Shown: positions 3,834 to 34,168 of the stretch, one piece after another | Layout of the letters: the number at the start of each line of letters is the position of its first letter | Numbering within the stretch: position 1 is the first letter of the stretch | From: Escherichia phage vB_EcoS_CEB_EC3a | DNA: 44,234 nucleotides | Reading direction: 5' to 3' (one strand) | Sequence record: NC_047812.1 | Translations under genes and position numbers: made by a program | Notes under the pieces: model-generated | Seen by the model: the letters and a program-made list of their open reading frames with translations, nothing else | Told to the model about the DNA's origin: nothing | Database searches by the model: none

Positions 3834-3873
3834 CACGAATTGCTCAACGCAGTCGACACGGATGGCATATAAT
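3831..3873 (+). promoter_or_regulatory. Dyad-promoter module (TAGCACGAATTGCTC-22 nt-TATAAT)
   Basis: Core 3831-3845, TATAAT 3868-3873. Confidence 0.65.
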
Positions 3874-24319: not shown

Positions 24320-25282
24320 TTAGTAGAAGTTTGGAATAAATGGAAGTGCCATTGATATGTTTGTGTCGAAAGGGAACCGGGCGCCAGTCTGGGTTGAATA
24401 GTTACCTATTACAGAGCCAGGAACAGCCCTAACAGAGCCTCCAGACATGCAAATGCCCTTGTATCGCAAGTTGTTATACCCTCCAGTAACTCTAGTCGTA
24501 GCGCCACATCTAAGAAGCGGGAAGAATCCACCATTTATTGACTGATATACATTGCTTATTTGTATAAATCCACTAAGTACAAATGGTCGCCTAACGCTGG
24601 AGAAAACAATCTGACCAGAGCTATTTGACATTGTAAGACCGGGTCCAGCTACTGGAGGTTCATTCCTGAATATCACCAACTGAACGTAAGTGCTTGCCGC
24701 CACGTCATCTATGCCACCATAGTTTACATCACGGCACCATATCGTACTGCCATCACTCTCCAGAGACACATTTGGGTTATCCCACTTACCAAATGGTATT
24801 CCGCTAACTGGTAGCGACGCTGCCCCGTTAACCTGTATACCTCCAACCCATGCTGCTGACATTAGTCTCGAGTTGCTTGATATAGCAAGGAAGTCAGTTG
24901 AGTTCTCAATGAGTATCCCTGGACTTGATGAAGATGAAGCCGGTAGTATCTCAAAGCAATTCCCAGCAAAGTCAATTATTCGACCTCTGGCACCATTGAA
25001 GTTGCTGAGCGTTATCCTACCAGTGCCGTCATTTACCTTTTGAAACCCGTTCATGTAATAAACTTCGGGTATAACATCATAAGCGTCAACGTGGACCGCC
25101 TTCGTTGGTAGGCAGAAAGCCGTAGAGCCAGGGGACATTGTCAATCCAAAATCCCAAGAACTTGCTGGGGTTGAAAGTCCATTGGTATTTATTGATCCAG
25201 TCACAGCAGGTGCCCTTAACCCTGCCGTAATCTCCATAGCTGGTCTTCCGTCATTGAGGTCAATCAATATACCCTGAGGCAT
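24320..25282 (-). CDS. Putative terminal receptor-binding protein (RBP)
   Basis: ATG 25282 overlaps the lipoprotein stop (TAATG), with AGGAG 9 nt upstream. 320 aa, inverted downstream of gpJ and paired with a lipoprotein, as in T5 pb5/llp and T1-like RBP loci. Confidence 0.6.
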   Translation of the reverse strand: MPQGILIDLNDGRPAMEITAGLRAPAVTGSINTNGLSTPASSWDFGLTMSPGSTAFCLPTKAVHVDAYDVIPEVYYMNGFQKVNDGTGRITLSNFNGARGRIIDFAGNCFEILPASSSSSPGILIENSTDFLAISSNSRLMSAAWVGGIQVNGAASLPVSGIPFGKWDNPNVSLESDGSTIWCRDVNYGGIDDVAASTYVQLVIFRNEPPVAGPGLTMSNSSGQIVFSSVRRPFVLSGFIQISNVYQSINGGFFPLLRCGATTRVTGGYNNLRYKGICMSGGSVRAVPGSVIGNYSTQTGARFPFDTNISMALPFIPNFY

Positions 25283-25524
25283 TATTTCCACTCCTTACTG
25301 CCGTGATCTGCAACAGAACCGCCGTAACCGCCACCAGTGGCCTTAATTCCATCGTATCGCACATCAACTTCACCAGCTGGTACAATCACACCATTTTTCC
25401 ATTTAGCTACGCACACGCCGTTTGCTTGGGTTGCACACCATCCATCAGGTCGAGGACCTGAAGAACAACCTACCATCATGATTACTGCTGCGGCGATGAT
25501 TGCTGATTTGATTAAGTTAGTCAT
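25282..25524 (-). CDS. Superinfection-exclusion lipoprotein (Llp/Cor-like)
   Basis: 80 aa. Signal peptide plus lipobox MMVGC|S. Adjacent to the RBP. Confidence 0.7.
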
Positions 25525-25563
25525 TTTGAATTCCTCATTAAGTTGTTTCGTTTCGATGTGGTA

Positions 25564-25606
25564 ATAGTATCGAATCCTTGCGATCAGTGTTTAGCAATTA
25601 GTGCTA
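25564..25606 (-). promoter_or_regulatory. Dyad-promoter module (minus strand) driving lipoprotein and RBP
   Basis: Core 25592-25606, 22-nt spacer, TACTAT (plus-strand ATAGTA 25564-25569), leader TACCACATCGAAACGAAAC. Confidence 0.65.
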
Positions 25607-26251
25607 TTTCTTTTCGAGTAACATCTTGATGTCAATGCCGAGATTATTTTCAATCAATCCAGTCAGTGCATCCGTCTTTTCTTTAAGGGCAAAACACTGA
25701 GCTTCATACTTAAATCTTTCCTCCATCTCGTCAGAGCGACTAACCCAGCACTGGCGAGCCTCGCAAGCCAGCATGTCGAGTTTTTCATCGGTATTCTTAT
25801 CCATGAGTAAGATCTCATTTATTCTTTGCTCTGCAACAATGCGCTGACTAAGGTGTGCATTTTGCGCATTAGCCACACCAAGCATCATTCGCACTTCTTT
25901 TAACTCATCAATGCTTACCATCTGGCTGATTACTTCTTCTTGTTTTTTAACTAATTGCTCAAGCTCATGAAGTCGACGGATAACTTTGTGTCGAAGCACG
26001 ACGCTGTAGCCAGTGATTAGCGTTTCGGTGAGTTCCTTGTTGAGTAAAATCTCAGATGTATAGCCTCGATTGTCTGTAAGTAGTTGATAATCATAATGAC
26101 CCAAATCTGGGGCATCGTTATAATGTAACAATTCATTGATCATTTCCTTTGTGTCGCGAACGACGTGATCATGACGTTTCCCGGTTAACTCTGCGATTTC
26201 CTTTGTGCTCATCATGGTTTTTGGTTGTTCTTTGTACAATTCAATGTTCAT
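25604..26251 (-). CDS. Rha-family phage regulatory protein
   Basis: N-terminus MSTKEIAELTGKRHDHVVRDTKEMI matches the Rha signature. ATG 26251 is preferred because SD AAGAGAG lies 6 nt upstream. Stop TAG is in the next module. Confidence 0.7.
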   Translation of the reverse strand: MNIELYKEQPKTMMSTKEIAELTGKRHDHVVRDTKEMINELLHYNDAPDLGHYDYQLLTDNRGYTSEILLNKELTETLITGYSVVLRHKVIRRLHELEQLVKKQEEVISQMVSIDELKEVRMMLGVANAQNAHLSQRIVAEQRINEILLMDKNTDEKLDMLACEARQCWVSRSDEMEERFKYEAQCFALKEKTDALTGLIENNLGIDIKMLLEKK

Positions 26252-26322
26252 TTTCATCTCTCTTTGGTTTTGTGATACGAAATTTTCGTAGCACAAGCAG
26301 CACCATTGCCGCCATGCGCCTA

Positions 26323-26365
26323 AATATAACTAAAGATAGTCAGTTGTCTTTAGCAATTAGTGCTA
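26323..26365 (-). promoter_or_regulatory. Dyad-promoter module (minus strand) driving rha
   Basis: Core 26351-26365, 22-nt spacer, TATATT (plus-strand AATATA 26323-26328). Confidence 0.6.
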
Positions 26366-26379
26366 TTTATCGCCAATTT

Positions 26380-26770
26380 CACCATAAATCACGGTTACAC
26401 GTAACCGATGTAACTCTATGTATACAATATCATCCGCGGAAAATGATATACGCGCTGTTACGCCAATTTACGCATTGGTTACATTAAAATATCTATATAT
26501 ATCAACCTTTTACTCTTATTATTATTATTATATATATTACTGTGTATATCATGTAACTACTTCTATAGAGTGTTCCGGTTATAATTTTAATATCATGTGG
26601 ATTTATACAGTATTGCGTGGCAACTATACCAACGCACCCTCAGCCAGGAATGGTATACACGATATACACGACGGTTACATTGAGCTATAGCTGGGCTGAG
26701 GTGCCCAAAAACGTAACGAGAGCTAATACCTACACGGAATTACGAGGATTCACACGTAACTTTAAGTCAA
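26380..26770. repeat. Noncoding iteron/AT-rich module, copy B (paralog of 1-404)
   Basis: Colinear blocks with copy A: ACACGTAAC, (TA)n, (ATT)n, TCATGTAAC, TATAAT, the 22-mer ACATTGAGCTATAGCTGGGCTG (26677-26698), then ACGTAACGA and CACACGTAAC. ORFs 26418..26690 and 26149..26487 are low-complexity artefacts. Confidence 0.8.
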
Positions 26771-26772
26771 CG

Positions 26773-26816
26773 ATTGGCAAAACCAATTGGACTTGTTGCG
26801 ATGCCGAATATATAGT
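26773..26816 (+). promoter_or_regulatory. Variant dyad-promoter (ATTGGCAAAACCAAT-23 nt-TATAGT) for the recombination operon
   Basis: A different 5-N5-5 palindrome (26773-26787) occupies the position of the TAGCA dyad. TATAGT 26811-26816, leader TACCTCATCGAAAGC. Confidence 0.55.
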
Positions 26817-26853
26817 TACCTCATCGAAAGCAAGCAACCAGAGAGATATAGAA

Positions 26854-27048
26854 ATGACCTACTACATTATCAAAGAGAAAAACAATGCACTGTTCGGCGA
26901 CTGCTACTTTGGCGGGCCTGCTGGATACACCACAGATAAGAATGAGGCAGACCGATTCGATACCAAAGAAGAAGCCAGAGATGTTCTGACCGGGTACTTC
27001 ACTGAGGAAGATTTGAAGTCTGTTAAAGTGGTTAAGGTCAAGGGGTAA
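26854..27048 (+). CDS. Hypothetical protein (64 aa)
   Basis: ATG 26854 follows AGAGAGATATAGAA. The longer ORF 26617..27048 runs through the promoter and iterons. Confidence 0.65.
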   Translation: MTYYIIKEKNNALFGDCYFGGPAGYTTDKNEADRFDTKEEARDVLTGYFTEEDLKSVKVVKVKG

Positions 27049-27051
27049 GTT

Positions 27052-28017
27052 ATGAGCTTTACTGTTTACACACGAGAAGAACTATCAAACTCTGAGTACC
27101 ACTCTGAGACTGATCACATCTCCGGTAGCTCGCTTGTCGAGATTATCCATGGTTCGCCAGCTAAGTGGAAATTCAAACAGCGCAATAATGATAGTAAGGC
27201 TCTTAAATTTGGCACGCTGTCACATACTTACATCCTAGAAGGTGACATGTTTGATAAAGAATTCCTTCGAGCCACAGACCTTGACGCGATTGAAGGCTTA
27301 ATTACAAGCCAGACCGGATTATCGGCAGCGCTGAAAAAAGTTGGCGTTGCTGGCACGTCTGGGAAGGGCTATAGCGAACTTGTAGAGATGATGTATCGCT
27401 CCGGTGAGGATTGGCCTGTTAAGTGGCTAATTGAACAGCAGGAGAGTGCTCAGGCGCTTGTGGAGGGTAGGGAGCTAGTTAGCGCGGCAGACTATGACAA
27501 AGTGGTGGCGATGCGTGAGGTTCTTTGTAATATTCCAGCATATAATGCAATAGTGAACAGCGAGACAGCGCAGAAAGAGCTATCAATCTTTGGTGAGATT
27601 CTCGGCGTCGGCGTGAAGATTCGAATTGACCACGTTGATGTTGTTGATGGTGTGGTGTGTATTACCGATCTGAAAACGACAGCCAGCGCATCACCTCAGG
27701 AGTTTGGGAGACTTGCATTCAAGCATGGGTATCTTGCAAAAATGGCTCTACAGCACGATGTTTTTGTTATGGCTTTTAATGAAAAAAGAAAAACAAAAGT
27801 AAGGCTACTTGCAATCGAGAAAGAGGAGCCTTACCTACCAATGCTTTACAACATTACAGAAGAGCAACTGAAGGTTGGTCGCAGAATGTATTTAGAGGCG
27901 CTTGCCACTTACAAAAAGTGCAAAGAGAATGATGTGTGGCCCGGTTATGCAATGGGCGCAACAGAGATCGACCTAGATGTTCCTGAGTGGGATATGAGGA
28001 AGTATAAAGAAATTTAA
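27052..28017 (+). CDS. PD-(D/E)XK (RecE/RecB-like) recombination exonuclease
   Basis: 321 aa with IRIDHVD...ITDLKTT (D...D-x-K) nuclease core. Directly upstream of an ERF annealase. Confidence 0.7.
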   Translation: MSFTVYTREELSNSEYHSETDHISGSSLVEIIHGSPAKWKFKQRNNDSKALKFGTLSHTYILEGDMFDKEFLRATDLDAIEGLITSQTGLSAALKKVGVAGTSGKGYSELVEMMYRSGEDWPVKWLIEQQESAQALVEGRELVSAADYDKVVAMREVLCNIPAYNAIVNSETAQKELSIFGEILGVGVKIRIDHVDVVDGVVCITDLKTTASASPQEFGRLAFKHGYLAKMALQHDVFVMAFNEKRKTKVRLLAIEKEEPYLPMLYNITEEQLKVGRRMYLEALATYKKCKENDVWPGYAMGATEIDLDVPEWDMRKYKEI

Positions 28018-28018
28018 A

Positions 28019-28061
28019 TAGCACGAATCGCTAAAGACAAAATTAAAAGGTGGGGTATGAT
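28019..28061 (+). promoter_or_regulatory. Dyad-promoter module (TAGCACGAATCGCTA-22 nt-TATGAT)
   Basis: Core 28019-28033, TATGAT 28056-28061. Confidence 0.55.
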
Positions 28062-28090
28062 TACCCAATCAACAACGAACGAGGTTAAAG

Positions 28091-28741
28091 ATGCAAATTT
28101 CAGAATCATGCAAATCAATTTTAAACGCGCTACACACTGCCAAGTCGCTATTTGCGAAGGCTGAAAAGTCGAAGCAGAACTCGCACCTAAAGAACAGATA
28201 CAGTACTCTTGATGATGTTCTTGCTGCTGTGGAGCCTGGCCTTGAAGAATGTGGTCTTGTAATGTTTCAGAGCGTAATTGATAGCGAAGATACTGGACTA
28301 TTAAAGGTTGAGACAAAGTTATTCCATGCGGAGTCAGGTGAGTGGGTTAGCTTCTTAATGATTGTCCCAATCAGCAAGAATGACGCTCAAGGTTACGGAT
28401 CAGCATTAACATACGCTCGACGTTACGGAATCACAGCGGCATTAGGACTTAGCCAGGCAGATGATGATGGAAATCTTGCAGCGAAGGGTGTTAAGGACTT
28501 TAAGCGAGAACTTGAGAAGTGCAATACTCTTGATGAGCTTCGCAATGTCTGGAAAGATGCTAAGCAATCACTTGATGCGGCAGGATGGAAGGTCTTTGAA
28601 CCTCATATTATCGAGCGCAAAGCAGAGATAGAGGCTAATGCAGCAACTGGCTTCAACCCGGCAACACCAAAGAAAGTTGCAGAAAAAAGTAGTCCTGAAG
28701 AAAAGATTGAAGTAGAATCACAACAAATCGACACATTCTAA
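28091..28741 (+). CDS. erf: ERF-family single-strand annealing protein
   Basis: NRYSTLDDVLAAVEP...GYGSALTYARRYGITAALGL is characteristic of the ERF family. Confidence 0.75.
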   Translation: MQISESCKSILNALHTAKSLFAKAEKSKQNSHLKNRYSTLDDVLAAVEPGLEECGLVMFQSVIDSEDTGLLKVETKLFHAESGEWVSFLMIVPISKNDAQGYGSALTYARRYGITAALGLSQADDDGNLAAKGVKDFKRELEKCNTLDELRNVWKDAKQSLDAAGWKVFEPHIIERKAEIEANAATGFNPATPKKVAEKSSPEEKIEVESQQIDTF

Positions 28742-28785
28742 ATTTTACGGGGCTACGGCACCAAACCAACAGAGAGATATAAAAC

Positions 28786-29217
28786 ATGCACGTAATTACT
28801 GGTCAGATTCGACGCGCTCCATTCACTAAGGAAGGTCAGAATGCTAATGGTACCTGGAAAATGTTCGCGGTTGATTTGAGTGAGCGATACAAAGATAAAG
28901 ATGGTCAGACTCAGTATAATAACTATCGCGCCGTCTTTTTCGCTAAAGAGTCAATGCTAGATTGGTACAATGAGGCATTTCAAGAGGGTAAAGTTGTTAG
29001 CGTTAGCGCTGAAAGTTTATCTGTAGATGTTCGTGACAAAGATGGTAAAACATACGTAACCATTAATATGAATAATCCACGACTTGAGTTTAGCCAGCGT
29101 GGCGATGGTGGTGGTCAACAACGGCAACAGCAGCGTCATCAGCCACAACAACCACAGCAACAGCAACAGCAACAACCGAAGCAGCAACAGAACTTCGAAG
29201 ATGATATTCCTTTCTAA
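28786..29217 (+). CDS. ssb: Single-stranded DNA-binding protein
   Basis: OB-fold-sized N-terminal domain, Gln/Pro-rich linker, canonical acidic tip FEDDIPF at the C-terminus. Confidence 0.85.
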   Translation: MHVITGQIRRAPFTKEGQNANGTWKMFAVDLSERYKDKDGQTQYNNYRAVFFAKESMLDWYNEAFQEGKVVSVSAESLSVDVRDKDGKTYVTINMNNPRLEFSQRGDGGGQQRQQQRHQPQQPQQQQQQQPKQQQNFEDDIPF

Positions 29218-29246: not shown

Positions 29247-32054
29247 TGAAGCTGTATTTACCTGAAGATATGCACCATTAGTTGCACCAAACCATGCGTA
29301 AGCAGATCCGTAAGTTGTTGGGTTATCATTTAAGATGAAGTCACCCGCTCTAATTACGCACTTTTCTCCATATTTATCAGTTGGCCTTGCACTAAAACCA
29401 TAATCAACATATCTAAAACCAACCTTCGTTACGTTCTTGTTAAGAGGAAAAATCCTTAAGAAGCTAGAAGCCCTAAAGTCATTATTCCTGAAAATTCCTC
29501 CTGTAAAGTTATCCATATCAAACATTGTGGTTAAACTTGAAGCAACAGTATTCATGAACTTGTTGCCTTCATATGTCGGAGCTACTACTTCATAGCCAAC
29601 TCTTAGCTGAACAAATCCTCCATCAAGAATATTGTCCTTAATTGTTGGGTACTGACCGCCGATTGATAACGCCCCAAAGCCAGGTGTAAATTTGCAACTA
29701 TTATTACTAAATATAGTACCAACCCAACCCTGATTTGTAATATATGGCGCTTTCGTGTCTGTCATGGTGTTTCCGGTGATAATCAATCCATTCTTAGCCT
29801 GGACTCCCTCCTGGTAGCCCTGAATCGCTACTCCACCACCAATCATAATGTTATCAGCGATAAGAATATTACTTAGACCTTCGTTAACACCCCAATCACT
29901 TTCTGAATCATTTGTTATCAGTAAGTAGTGAGAAGAAGCCCTGCCAGTAGCGTCTGTAGTTATGATGCTTGTATTCCCTTTGCATATAACATTGTTTGCC
30001 GCAAAAACCTCAACAAATATACCAGAGCCTTCGTAGTAGTTATCAGTAACCGTTATGTTATTGCCAGCAGGCGTTATACGTGACTGGATAGATATTGGAT
30101 AATAGAACTTGTTGGCGTGAGCATAAGACCTTTTGCTTTTTTCGGATATTGCATAATCCTCCGCGAAAGTGTGCCATGCCCTTCCTGACTGTTTTGTTGT
30201 GTTTCCGATAAACTCTGAGTAGTCACAGTTTCTTGTGAGTAAGCAGTAGTTAGCGTTGTATCTGAAGTTTGAATCTCTAAGAGATACGAATGCATTAGAC
30301 AAACCATTAAGAGCATCGGCATTAACAAAGGCCCTCGAGGCATTAACCTCCATACGCTCAATCAAAACTGATGCGCATCCTTCAACCATAAATCCAAACC
30401 AGTCTTCTCTTGGTTTATGCGTTGTATCTAATGGTTGGATTGAGTAATCTGAAAAGTCACTATTCCAGTTGAGGCCGCTAGCTTTAAGTGTGCAATTCTT
30501 TGCGCCGAAAACAACCCTCTCAGGTGATGAACTTCCAGATATATCGATCTCAACATCATTATTGGCAAAAATATCAACATTAAGGCCATTAATGAAGAAT
30601 GCCGTCTTCCTTAATACGTTGTACTTATCATTGTACTGAATATCAGTGGAGAATGAGACTTTCAGTCTTCCAGCGCTAATTCTTACCTTCCTGTTTGTAT
30701 TGTGACCAAGGTTTATACATGCCATAACCGAGGCGTTTGATTCATTAACTCCAGACACATCATGACCAGCCCATTCGGTATGGATATCATCAACACCTCC
30801 CGTAAACCTAACCCAGCAACCATTTTCACCTGGTGATGTCTCACCCGCTCCGCTAAGGAAGTCTGAAAGCGTGGAATATGTACCATCAAATGGAACCGTT
30901 GGGCTAAAAACAGTAATCCCGTTATGTTCGCTCTTACTTACTAATGGACTCCAGTAGAACAGACCGCCACCAGAGTTTGATCCAGAAATGTAAGACCTTA
31001 CATTTGCTAAATTTTTATTCTCATTTGTTTGTTTGATTAGTTCGTAAATTGAATCAACTGAAGATAGTCCTAAATTACTCCTGGCAAGGCTTTTATCCGC
31101 AACATCAGAGAAATTCAATGATTTTTGAAAAGTCTCATTTTTTGAGTAAACATCAAGTAAACCTCTTACTCGCTGGGCGTTAGCGCCTCCAGCTTCATTT
31201 CCGCCAGGCAAGTAGATTGACTCTCTAACATAGTAATTCCTAACACCACCGGAAGTATTGTAACTGATGTGATAACGTCTAAAGTTGCCATCGATACCGG
31301 TGTAGGTTGACACTTGAATATTTCTTGATCCAGTCCCAGTTGCTCCGCCCTCTACAGATATAACAAGCGTAGCATTGCTTGGTACTTTTAATGCTTCTGG
31401 TGCATTTGTGCAAGCAGAGAAAGCAACCCTATAATGACCGCCAACAACAAAATTAAAAGTTTGGAAATCAAGTTCACTTAAAATATTGCTACCATTACCG
31501 ATACCCCAACCAGAAAGTGTAACTAGTGTTCCAGCATCACCAGCACTATTAATTGCCTCAATAGTAGCATCTCTCGCTGATGTGGTTGTATCTCTTGCAC
31601 TAACGGCAGTAGCTGCGCTCTCTGCGGCAGCAATCTGGCTAGCTAAAGCATCCGCTGCTCCTTGCACTGACTGGCTTGCCAATTGCTCAAAGCGAGGCCA
31701 ATCAAAAGAATCCTGACCAATGAAATCAATCAGGCTCTGAATGCTAGTTTCCCTACTCTGATAATAACGAAGTGTCTCCGCTACATTTTGAGCTAAACCC
31801 TGAACACTAATACCATCATGTGCAAGGATTGCATAACCAGTGCCAGCGGGAACGGTTTCACCATTAGGGTTGTATACAGCCATTGATGTGTCGCTGGTGA
31901 TTTCAGAGATAGTGTAAATCTGTACTGGCTCCGTTTTAAACACTAAAGTAGCACCAACGCGAATAAGTGTTAGTGGCATGGTCCATTGAGTGCCAACTCC
32001 AGTAACCTGACCGTTCGCTGCTAAACTGGCAGTGCCAGTATCATAAATTGCCAT
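29244..32054 (-). CDS. Lateral tail fibre/tailspike with beta-helix (depolymerase-like) domain
   Basis: Start MAIYDTGTASLAANGQVTGVGTQW (ATG 32054, SD GGAG). Conserved fibre-anchor N-terminus, then Asn/Gly-rich repeats typical of right-handed beta-helix spikes. Confidence 0.75.
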   Translation of the reverse strand: MAIYDTGTASLAANGQVTGVGTQWTMPLTLIRVGATLVFKTEPVQIYTISEITSDTSMAVYNPNGETVPAGTGYAILAHDGISVQGLAQNVAETLRYYQSRETSIQSLIDFIGQDSFDWPRFEQLASQSVQGAADALASQIAAAESAATAVSARDTTTSARDATIEAINSAGDAGTLVTLSGWGIGNGSNILSELDFQTFNFVVGGHYRVAFSACTNAPEALKVPSNATLVISVEGGATGTGSRNIQVSTYTGIDGNFRRYHISYNTSGGVRNYYVRESIYLPGGNEAGGANAQRVRGLLDVYSKNETFQKSLNFSDVADKSLARSNLGLSSVDSIYELIKQTNENKNLANVRSYISGSNSGGGLFYWSPLVSKSEHNGITVFSPTVPFDGTYSTLSDFLSGAGETSPGENGCWVRFTGGVDDIHTEWAGHDVSGVNESNASVMACINLGHNTNRKVRISAGRLKVSFSTDIQYNDKYNVLRKTAFFINGLNVDIFANNDVEIDISGSSSPERVVFGAKNCTLKASGLNWNSDFSDYSIQPLDTTHKPREDWFGFMVEGCASVLIERMEVNASRAFVNADALNGLSNAFVSLRDSNFRYNANYCLLTRNCDYSEFIGNTTKQSGRAWHTFAEDYAISEKSKRSYAHANKFYYPISIQSRITPAGNNITVTDNYYEGSGIFVEVFAANNVICKGNTSIITTDATGRASSHYLLITNDSESDWGVNEGLSNILIADNIMIGGGVAIQGYQEGVQAKNGLIITGNTMTDTKAPYITNQGWVGTIFSNNSCKFTPGFGALSIGGQYPTIKDNILDGGFVQLRVGYEVVAPTYEGNKFMNTVASSLTTMFDMDNFTGGIFRNNDFRASSFLRIFPLNKNVTKVGFRYVDYGFSARPTDKYGEKCVIRAGDFILNDNPTTYGSAYAWFGATNGAYLQVNTAS

Positions 32055-32078: not shown

Positions 32079-32108
32079 TAGCACTAATTGCTAAAGTGGA
32101 TTGTATCA
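32079..32108 (-). promoter_or_regulatory. Fibre-gene promoter (TGaTACAAT) with the TAGCA dyad placed at about +1 to +15
   Basis: On the minus strand: TGATACAAT (32100-32108), 6 nt, then TAGCAATTAGTGCTA (32079-32093). This is operator-over-start geometry, unlike the other copies. Confidence 0.5.
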
Positions 32109-33593: not shown

Positions 33594-34067
33594 TTACTCT
33601 TTAGCTTTTCGTGCGGCTTCGTTAGCTGCCTTGATCTTTCGCCATGAGCGACACTCTGGTTTAGTTGCTAGCTCAGCCTCAGTAACAACACGCAGCATAT
33701 GACGCTTCTTGCAACGTAGAGTTAGCGGTTTCCCGTTACCGTCGAATTGCAGATCTGGTCGGCAGAATGTAGCGCGAAAACCTTCTCCATTTCGCTTATA
33801 GTAGTTGTGCGACAGCTGGGCGCCGCGCGCAGAAATCATCCCACGCTTAAACCATTCTTCTACAGCCTGAGGTGTCACCTTTAACTGCTTTGCGATATTT
33901 GCCTTTGTGCCGAAGAAATCAAGAACAATCTCCAACCGTGCGCGCAACCCAGCCCTTACCTCGTCTTTTAAAACGTAGTAGCCTGAAGGTCGTTTCCGTT
34001 GTTTTTTGTCTTCAGTACGAATGGTTCCGTTGTTCCCGTTAATTGTTCGCTTGTCTACTGCATTCAT
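33594..34067 (-). CDS. Putative HTH DNA-binding protein (157 aa)
   Basis: HTH-like segment NIAKQLKVTPQAVEEWFKRGMIS; basic termini. Confidence 0.55.
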   Translation of the reverse strand: MNAVDKRTINGNNGTIRTEDKKQRKRPSGYYVLKDEVRAGLRARLEIVLDFFGTKANIAKQLKVTPQAVEEWFKRGMISARGAQLSHNYYKRNGEGFRATFCRPDLQFDGNGKPLTLRCKKRHMLRVVTEAELATKPECRSWRKIKAANEAARKAKE

Positions 34068-34080
34068 TTCATTACCTCAA

Positions 34081-34122
34081 TAGCATTTTTTGTTAAAAGT
34101 CATTCCGATTTAATGTTATTAT
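34081..34122 (+). promoter_or_regulatory. Dyad-promoter module, variant (TAGCATTTTTTGTTA-21 nt-TATTAT) for helicase
   Basis: Core 34081-34095, TATTAT 34117-34122. Confidence 0.5.
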
Positions 34123-34168
34123 TGTACTCAATTAAACGCTACAAGACAATTTTTATAGGAATTTAGAT

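Follow-up and report, generated by a model that had tools for sequence, protein, structure and literature searches.

Three described systems are among the closest comparisons for the promoter considered here. The first is the 21-nt direct repeat aaATAGCACnnnTTGnTAAAA of T1-like phages, which Kropinski and colleagues found at 21 places in phage TLS and which also occurs in T1, Rtp and Rogue1; roles as a stoperator, an enhancer site or an UP-like element have been suggested for it (PMC11447400). The repeat is directional, with its strongest conservation at ATAGCAC and TAAAA (PMC11447400), and because it is conserved mainly at these two blocks, it may not be a symmetric dyad operator at all. The second is the promoter of T1 gene 29 (exonuclease), which drives exo-erf-ssb from the right-hand end of the intergenic region between cor and exo. 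The third is the E. coli PdhR box of the pdhR, cyoA, ndh, grcA and lldP operators, with the consensus (A)ATTGGTnnnACCAAT(T) given together with a table of sites (PMC7660256). According to Anzai et al., PdhR binds tightly only where the core GGTnnnACC is present (PMC7660256). Scored against the consensus here, most of the gSELEX targets match at 7-11 of 14 positions.

The stretch of DNA analysed here (the window, 44,234 nucleotides) is an Rtp-like siphophage genome (Drexlerviridae, Braunvirinae), complete or nearly so. Its recombination region is 86-92% identical to those of vB_Ec-G8, UALMA_PCEc3, Rtp and Veterinaerplatzvirus isolates, and its gene order agrees with that of Rtp and T1. The features of this region are as follows.

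up to 24289, tail genes
24320-26296, minus strand, genes for a Cor-type lipoprotein, a membrane protein and a Rha-domain protein
between these minus-strand genes and the 64-aa open reading frame, intergenic region of 557 bp
26297-26770, no strand, iteron-rich and AT-rich intergenic region, with an AT-rich core of about 100 bp (26480-26600) and two tandem copies of TATACACGA
26772-26788, no strand, 17-mer GATTGGCaaaACCAATT, which agrees with the PdhR box of E. coli (AATTGGTnnnACCAATT) at 12 of 14 positions
26773-26787, no strand, candidate operator palindrome, about -50 to -36 counted from the predicted start site
26787-26792, plus strand, alternative -35-like hexamer TTGGAC (18-bp spacer), overlapping the right arm of the palindrome
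26788-26793, plus strand, -35-like hexamer TGGACT (17-bp spacer), abutting the right arm
26811-26816, plus strand, -10 hexamer TATAGT of the phage promoter family
26817-26830, plus strand, initial transcribed (leader) motif of the family, TACCTCATCGAAAG
26840-26845, plus strand, purine-rich ribosome-binding site (AGAGAG), separated from the ATG by 8 nt and kept in all relatives
26854-27048, plus strand, first gene of the operon, encoding a 64-aa protein with no Pfam match
27052-28017, plus strand, exonuclease VIII-like PDDEXK nuclease (DUF3799, by Pfam; relatives are annotated as exonuclease VIII)
28019-28061, plus strand, next promoter module, with a TAGCAC element (TAGCACGAATCGCTA) and the -10 hexamer TATGAT, driving Erf and the SSB-like gene
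28091-28741, Erf, downstream of the TATGAT promoter module
28786-29217, SSB-like gene, downstream of the same module

The first-pass annotation had described positions 26854-29217 as a recombination operon, composed of a small gene, an exonuclease gene and then ERF/SSB behind a separate module. The palindrome that it had placed at the head of this operon, ATTGG-CAAAA-CCAAT (ATTGGCAAAACCAAT), was found to be exact, with perfect 5-N5-5 symmetry and a gap of 23 nt to TATAGT, within a promoter region that reads cgATTGGCAAAACCAATTGGACTtgttgcgatgccgaataTATAGTtacctcatcgaaagcaagcaaccAGAGAGatatagaaATG. The pair TGGACT-17-TATAGT matches the sigma70 -35 and -10 hexamers at 9 of 12 positions, both hexamers are conserved in relatives, and the palindrome touches the -35-like hexamer. 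From the position of the -10 hexamer, we infer a start site near A26823, followed by the ATG of the 64-aa open reading frame at 26854. A host-sigma70-type promoter of this kind would drive the 64-aa gene and the exonuclease gene, with read-through into Erf and the SSB-like gene being likely. In Rtp, RefSeq annotates a 132-aa gene, rtp46 (28260-28658), the 5' part of which runs through the promoter and the palindrome; the pattern of conservation, together with the conserved ribosome-binding site and ATG, indicates that the real gene is the 64-aa open reading frame. The place of the 64-aa gene before an exonuclease gene recalls that of gam-type nuclease inhibitors.

Comparison with the other promoters of the window placed this locus within a family while setting it apart in a single element. 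Promoter cores were collected from all intergenic regions of the window with a position weight matrix (PWM) on the -10 hexamer and leader, which identified 14 cores. The core at 26811 (-10 TATAGT and leader TACCnCATCGAAAC) scored 30.6, within the family range of 18-33. In 13 of the 14 promoters, the core is preceded by AAATAGCACnnnTTGCTAAA, ending 22-23 nt upstream of the -10 hexamer; at 26811 alone this TAGCAC element is absent and the ATTGG palindrome ATTGGCAAAACCAAT stands in its place. The recombination promoter thus keeps the family -10 and leader, as had been proposed, and carries a different, conserved palindrome at the same distance. Being the sole natural exception to the ATAGCAC repeat, it also offers a ready contrast for studying the role of that repeat. 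Sequences of the form TAGCA-N5-TGCTA (at most one mismatch) occur 20 times in the window, against 1.9 expected. None of the TAGCAC-type promoters has a TTG-containing -35 hexamer, but 5 of the 13 reach 4/6 through TAAACA or AAGACA, so we do not regard the promoter at 26811 as the only one with a -35-like hexamer.

The annotation had further described the two elements as having the same geometry and different half-sites. The distance to the -10 hexamer is indeed alike, and both elements occupy the same place relative to the same -10 and leader. However, the TAGCA element corresponds to the published directional repeat (PMC11447400), which is asymmetrically conserved, whereas the palindrome is symmetric, and the comparison may therefore be one of unlike things. 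The sequences of the two are unrelated, with 6-7 of 18 positions matching in register, close to chance, and we rejected homology between them.

Several further features of the promoter family were observed. A perfect TAGCACTAATTGCTA element lies at 32079-32093, between the primase terminator and the start codon of the tail-fibre gene, and unlike the other copies it is followed by no family -10 or leader on either strand. A spacer motif, CACGGATGG or ACGGATG, lies just upstream of the -10 hexamer in the family promoters at 3868, 7281 and 43181 and also in the Rogunavirus version of the recombination promoter (loci L021-L025), and may be an additional promoter element. In the region 34068-34168, a sigma70-type promoter on the minus strand (TTGTCT-17-TACAAT, 34149 to 34121) would drive the gene of a Cro-like helix-turn-helix (HTH) protein (33594-34067). 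A degenerate TAGCA element at 34081-34095 would then lie in the transcribed leader of this gene, 13 nt before its ribosome-binding site; relative to the divergent helicase promoter, the element stands where the upstream element usually does. This placement is that of an autoregulatory switch, which makes the Cro-like protein (of the T1 gp23 family) a candidate reader of the ATAGCAC repeat.

To assess conservation, the region upstream of the 64-aa gene was gathered from GenBank phages and from metagenome and SRA contigs. The contigs were found through the 64-aa protein, so the sampling is unbiased as to the palindrome; a search of IMG/VR with the same protein returned 6 loci only, all duplicates of GenBank phages. 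In total, 30 distinct promoter sequences from Braunvirinae and Rogunavirinae aligned without gaps over the stretch that starts 4 nt before the palindrome and ends at the -10 hexamer, and the distance between the palindrome and the -10 hexamer was 23 nt in all 30. The palindrome is conserved among these relatives: it is perfect in 14 of the 30 sequences, 12 others retain 4 of its 5 pairs, and the remaining 4 (JeanPiccard, AugustePiccard, ERR11525811 and SCS31) retain 3. The information content of the alignment (maximum 2 bits per column, n = 30) was distributed as follows.

left arm, 2, 2, 0.65, 1.79 and 2 bits, mean 1.69
N5 spacer, A-rich, mean 1.13 bits
right arm, 1.09, 2, 1.09, 2 and 2 bits, mean 1.64
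-35-like hexamer, mean 1.48 bits
promoter spacer, about 0.37 bits
-10 hexamer, mean 1.47 bits

By mean bits, the arms of the palindrome are the best-conserved part of the promoter. Mirror symmetry runs through their profile, with no variation at A1/T15 and T2/A14, variation at both positions 3 and 13, and none or almost none at G4/C12. C12 never varies despite lying outside any -35 hexamer, and position 11 is C in 24 of 30 sequences; G18 and A19, within the -35-like hexamer, are likewise invariant. Between Braunvirinae and Rogunavirinae (Rogue1, Jk06, AKS96, e4/1c, Sf12 and phiEB49 were compared), the DNA upstream is unrelated, and similarity starts exactly at the left arm, AATAGGCAAAACCAATTGGATAA; in Rogue1, the DNA upstream of the palindrome is the end of a Rha-domain gene. 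The conservation of the arms, their mirror symmetry and the fixed distance of 23 nt are the footprint expected of a dimeric-protein operator abutting the -35-like hexamer TGGACT, and the palindrome is probably the operator of a symmetric dimeric protein. The second specificity proposed by the annotation is the most economical reading of the mirror-symmetric conservation, and is likely.

The lineages in which the palindrome has decayed bear on a different, possible but rather doubtful explanation, namely that the conserved block is an intrinsic promoter element with no dedicated regulator, formed by the -35 hexamer (TTGGAC or TGGACT) together with an upstream surface that RNA polymerase (alpha-CTD or sigma region 4), or the factor reading the ATAGCAC repeat, would contact. 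The palindromy would then be a by-product of CCAATTGG and ATTGG...ATTGG. In most of the decayed lineages AT.GG...ATTGGAC is kept, in several of them without the ACC or CCAAT half, which equally fits a direct repeat ATnGG-N8-ATTGG or an element centred on the -35 hexamer. Specifically, AT.GG (positions 1-5) and ATTGGA (14-19) outlast CCAAT in SCS31, JGI_Ga0565124, ERZ27264790 and JeanPiccard; in two phages of the Piccard clade the sequence is weakened to ATATGAC, and the second block (14-19) of AugustePiccard and ERR11525811 reads ATATGA. An intrinsic element would also be in keeping with the fairly conserved, A-rich N5 spacer and with the Rogunavirinae sequence AATAGGCA, which lies in register with AATAGCAC of the family repeat, although the match to the TAGCAC element as a whole is the near-chance one given above. 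The T1 promoter at the orthologous position lends further weight, since its plain TTGACT-N16-TATAAT, with no palindrome, 64-aa gene or family leader, indicates that unmodified host polymerase alone can serve this position. On the other hand, C12 and C11 lie outside both the -35 hexamer and the direct repeat, the profile is mirror-symmetric, and conservation is higher in the arms than in the -35 and -10 hexamers themselves. UP elements, as reportedly defined by Estrem and colleagues in 1999, are A/T-rich, extend from -57 to -38 and have the proximal subsite AAAAAARNR. The phage sequence GGCAAAACC fits this description poorly, as positions -46 to -38 read GCAAAACCA, flanked by the invariant GG and CC, and an UP element was therefore rejected.

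Perfect 5-N5-5 palindromes are common in this DNA, with 68 in the window against 45 ± 6 in shuffled sequences (11 of the 68 are TAGCA), so the argument for an operator rests on position and conservation and not on the existence of the palindrome. A perfect palindrome within 1 nt on either side of the dyad position would arise by chance with a frequency of about 3/1024. ATTGG-N5-CCAAT occurs once in the window, and the search for further copies that had been suggested yielded a single site per genome. That the palindrome is a site of the origin region, for a replication or architectural protein and only incidentally near a promoter, or a chance palindrome at a mosaic junction, is in our judgement very unlikely. 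It does lie at the right edge of a GTAAC-iteron, AT-rich region whose architecture is conserved in T1, and its left edge coincides with the similarity boundary between the two subfamilies. However, T1 has the origin-like region and no palindrome, the conservation is far above chance level, and the 23 nt to the -10 hexamer is exact in 30/30 sequences, whereas the spacing from the iterons is variable and in Rogunavirinae a gene lies upstream instead.

The annotation had left the reader of the palindrome as either a paralogous regulator or a host factor. Scans of about 40 phage proteins against Pfam, and of three against PHROGs, revealed neither a GntR/FadR-type protein nor a second HTH paralogue; the only DNA-binding candidates were the Cro-like HTH protein (33594-34067, the homologue of T1 gp23 and Rtp52) and the Rha-domain protein. 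The latter is absent or different in relatives, leaving the Cro-like protein as the only conserved HTH protein. When the phyletic profiles of 55 window proteins were compared across Rtp, Rogue1, T1 and JeanPiccard, a single 86-aa open reading frame (2111-2371) was present in Rtp and Rogue1 and missing from T1 and JeanPiccard; its product was rejected as the reader, as it is widespread among phages and occurs in 770 unrelated records. The 64-aa protein itself, which Braunvirinae and Rogunavirinae have and T1 lacks, was confidently modelled with AF2 (pLDDT 86) as a small beta-beta-alpha-beta alpha/beta fold. The model had no PDB match and no DNA-binding fold, which led us to reject autoregulation by the first gene product.

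Taken against these results, an operator of a yet unrecognised phage-encoded regulator, a small open reading frame that would give the recombination genes their own timing, appears unlikely. About 30 small proteins have no family assignment, the 5-N5-5 arrangement places the half-site centres 10 bp apart, as suits the binding of an HTH dimer, and the palindrome and the 64-aa gene are both found in the two subfamilies and both missing from T1. Yet the 64-aa gene persists in lineages with a decayed box, the adjacent Rha-domain gene is variable or absent, the sole phyletic match is the widespread one, and each genome has one site. Because there is no GntR-type protein, no HTH paralogue and no phyletically matching phage gene, a host factor is better supported than a phage factor, and of the two options in the annotation the paralogous regulator is the one that lost ground.

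Among host regulators, the best fit was PdhR. The half-sites and the spacing of the palindrome are those of the PdhR box: both are 15/17-bp palindromes with identical outer ATTGG/CCAAT and an N5 spacer, the ACC half of the core is intact in the window site, and the site overlaps a promoter in a manner compatible with repression. The window site matches AATTGGTnnnACCAATT at 12 of 14 positions, where known bound sites match at 7-14 of 14. The match rises to 13 of 14 in four lineages (the 12469II clade, PsgS01F, AN_ECEAS/ES and ERR6086948) and is 12 of 14 in the Rogunavirinae boxes; decay of the box has brought it down to 11 of 14 in ERR15156807, ERZ27264790 and SCS31 and to 8-9 in JGI_Ga0565124 and the Piccard clade. 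In TR2 the box is kept. Within the core, the window site (GGCaaaACC) has 5 of the 6 positions of GGTnnnACC. The bound lldP site AATTGGccctACCAATT carries the same T-to-C change (GGC), as does the bound msrP site, which has the 11-mer TGGCAAAACCA in common with the window site (PMC7660256). Across the 30 sequences, the core T is retained in 6 and replaced by C in 22, and this position is therefore not under the selection that PdhR binding would predict.

The phage box differs from its E. coli counterparts in other respects as well, as it lies on the genome of a virulent phage and is missing from some phage lineages. A PWM built from the gSELEX PdhR sites gave the window site 12.5 bits, the third best score in the window and not above background; the best, 14.2 bits, was reached by 24% of shuffled sequences, and at least one 17-mer with two or fewer mismatches to the PdhR box occurred in 22% of shuffles. 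The resemblance was recognised after the fact, and we estimate the chance that an arbitrary 5-N5-5 palindrome fits some E. coli regulator consensus at a few per cent. The LldR box (AAnTGGTCnGACCAnTT) and the general motif of FadR-subfamily GntR proteins belong, like the phage site, to the TGG...CCA class of palindromes. LldR itself was rejected as a worse fit than PdhR, as its box requires TGGTC-n-GACCA whereas the phage site reads TGGCA-a-AACCA, and the IHF consensus matched the palindrome poorly on direct reading. No known RNA families were found in 26250-26900. Our literature search returned no paper on the ATTGG palindrome or linking PdhR to T1-like phages, and no T1 or Rtp start sites.

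Combining the PdhR-box match with the lack of a phage reader among the proteins scanned and with the plain T1 promoter at the orthologous position, our best overall explanation, held tentatively and at somewhat less than even confidence, is that the palindrome is a dimeric-protein operator read by a host FadR-subfamily GntR regulator, with PdhR as the best fit, acting as a repressor. That the reader is specifically PdhR or a close paralogue is a possibility we hold with distinct reserve. Protein binding, PdhR as the binder and the direction of the effect are all part of this proposal. At low pyruvate, the PdhR that the cell already contains would bind the box as phage DNA enters and impede access of RNA polymerase, and pyruvate would release it. 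More generally, any symmetric protein bound there would contact sigma region 4 or the alpha-CTD. Repression by occlusion would be the simplest result, with class-II-type activation as a less simple possibility.

The separate temporal control of the recombination genes that the annotation had proposed is conjectural, and a PdhR-type reader would give metabolic control instead. We raise, as a quite speculative proposal, that virulent coliphages of the Rtp- and Rogue1-like groups have acquired a PdhR operator at the promoter of their recombination/early operon, either as a pyruvate checkpoint or else as a decoy for PdhR. In the checkpoint version, the operon of a lytic phage would be coupled to the pyruvate level of its host. 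In the decoy version, hundreds of replicated copies would titrate the scarce PdhR, so that pyruvate dehydrogenase and respiration would be derepressed and would fuel phage production. If PdhR does read the palindrome, it would show clearly that a strictly virulent phage can link one of its early operons to a sensor of host central metabolism, and the experimental handle would be simple, namely the addition of pyruvate and hosts with a pdhR deletion. If PdhR is not the reader, the palindrome would be an ordinary lineage-specific promoter element.

The annotation had also placed the palindrome at the edge of an iteron module, and this context proved real. GTAAC/GTTAC occurs in 10 copies within 26297-26853, where stretches of that length average 1.5, a 6-fold enrichment that is the densest in the genome. 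The T1 interval between cor and the exonuclease gene (29851-30377) has the same architecture, with GTAAC repeats and an AT-rich core, and the region 26297-26770 is a candidate replication origin for which we found no earlier description. A second GTAAC-rich stretch lies at positions 1-557 of the window.

Finally, the segment behind the recombination promoter is an insertion hot-spot in relatives, with the insertions lying between the promoter, the 64-aa gene and the exonuclease gene. Genes for HNH homing endonucleases are inserted in ERZ27264790, DTL and Sf12, Rha-domain genes are inserted behind the promoter in loci L032-L037, and an extra small gene of about 63-66 aa is inserted in TR2, where it lies behind the promoter, and in JeanPiccard. 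The segments concerned are 1-600 in L040, 1088-1538 in L008, 699-1159 in L024, 885-1072 in L010 and 892-1083 in L007.
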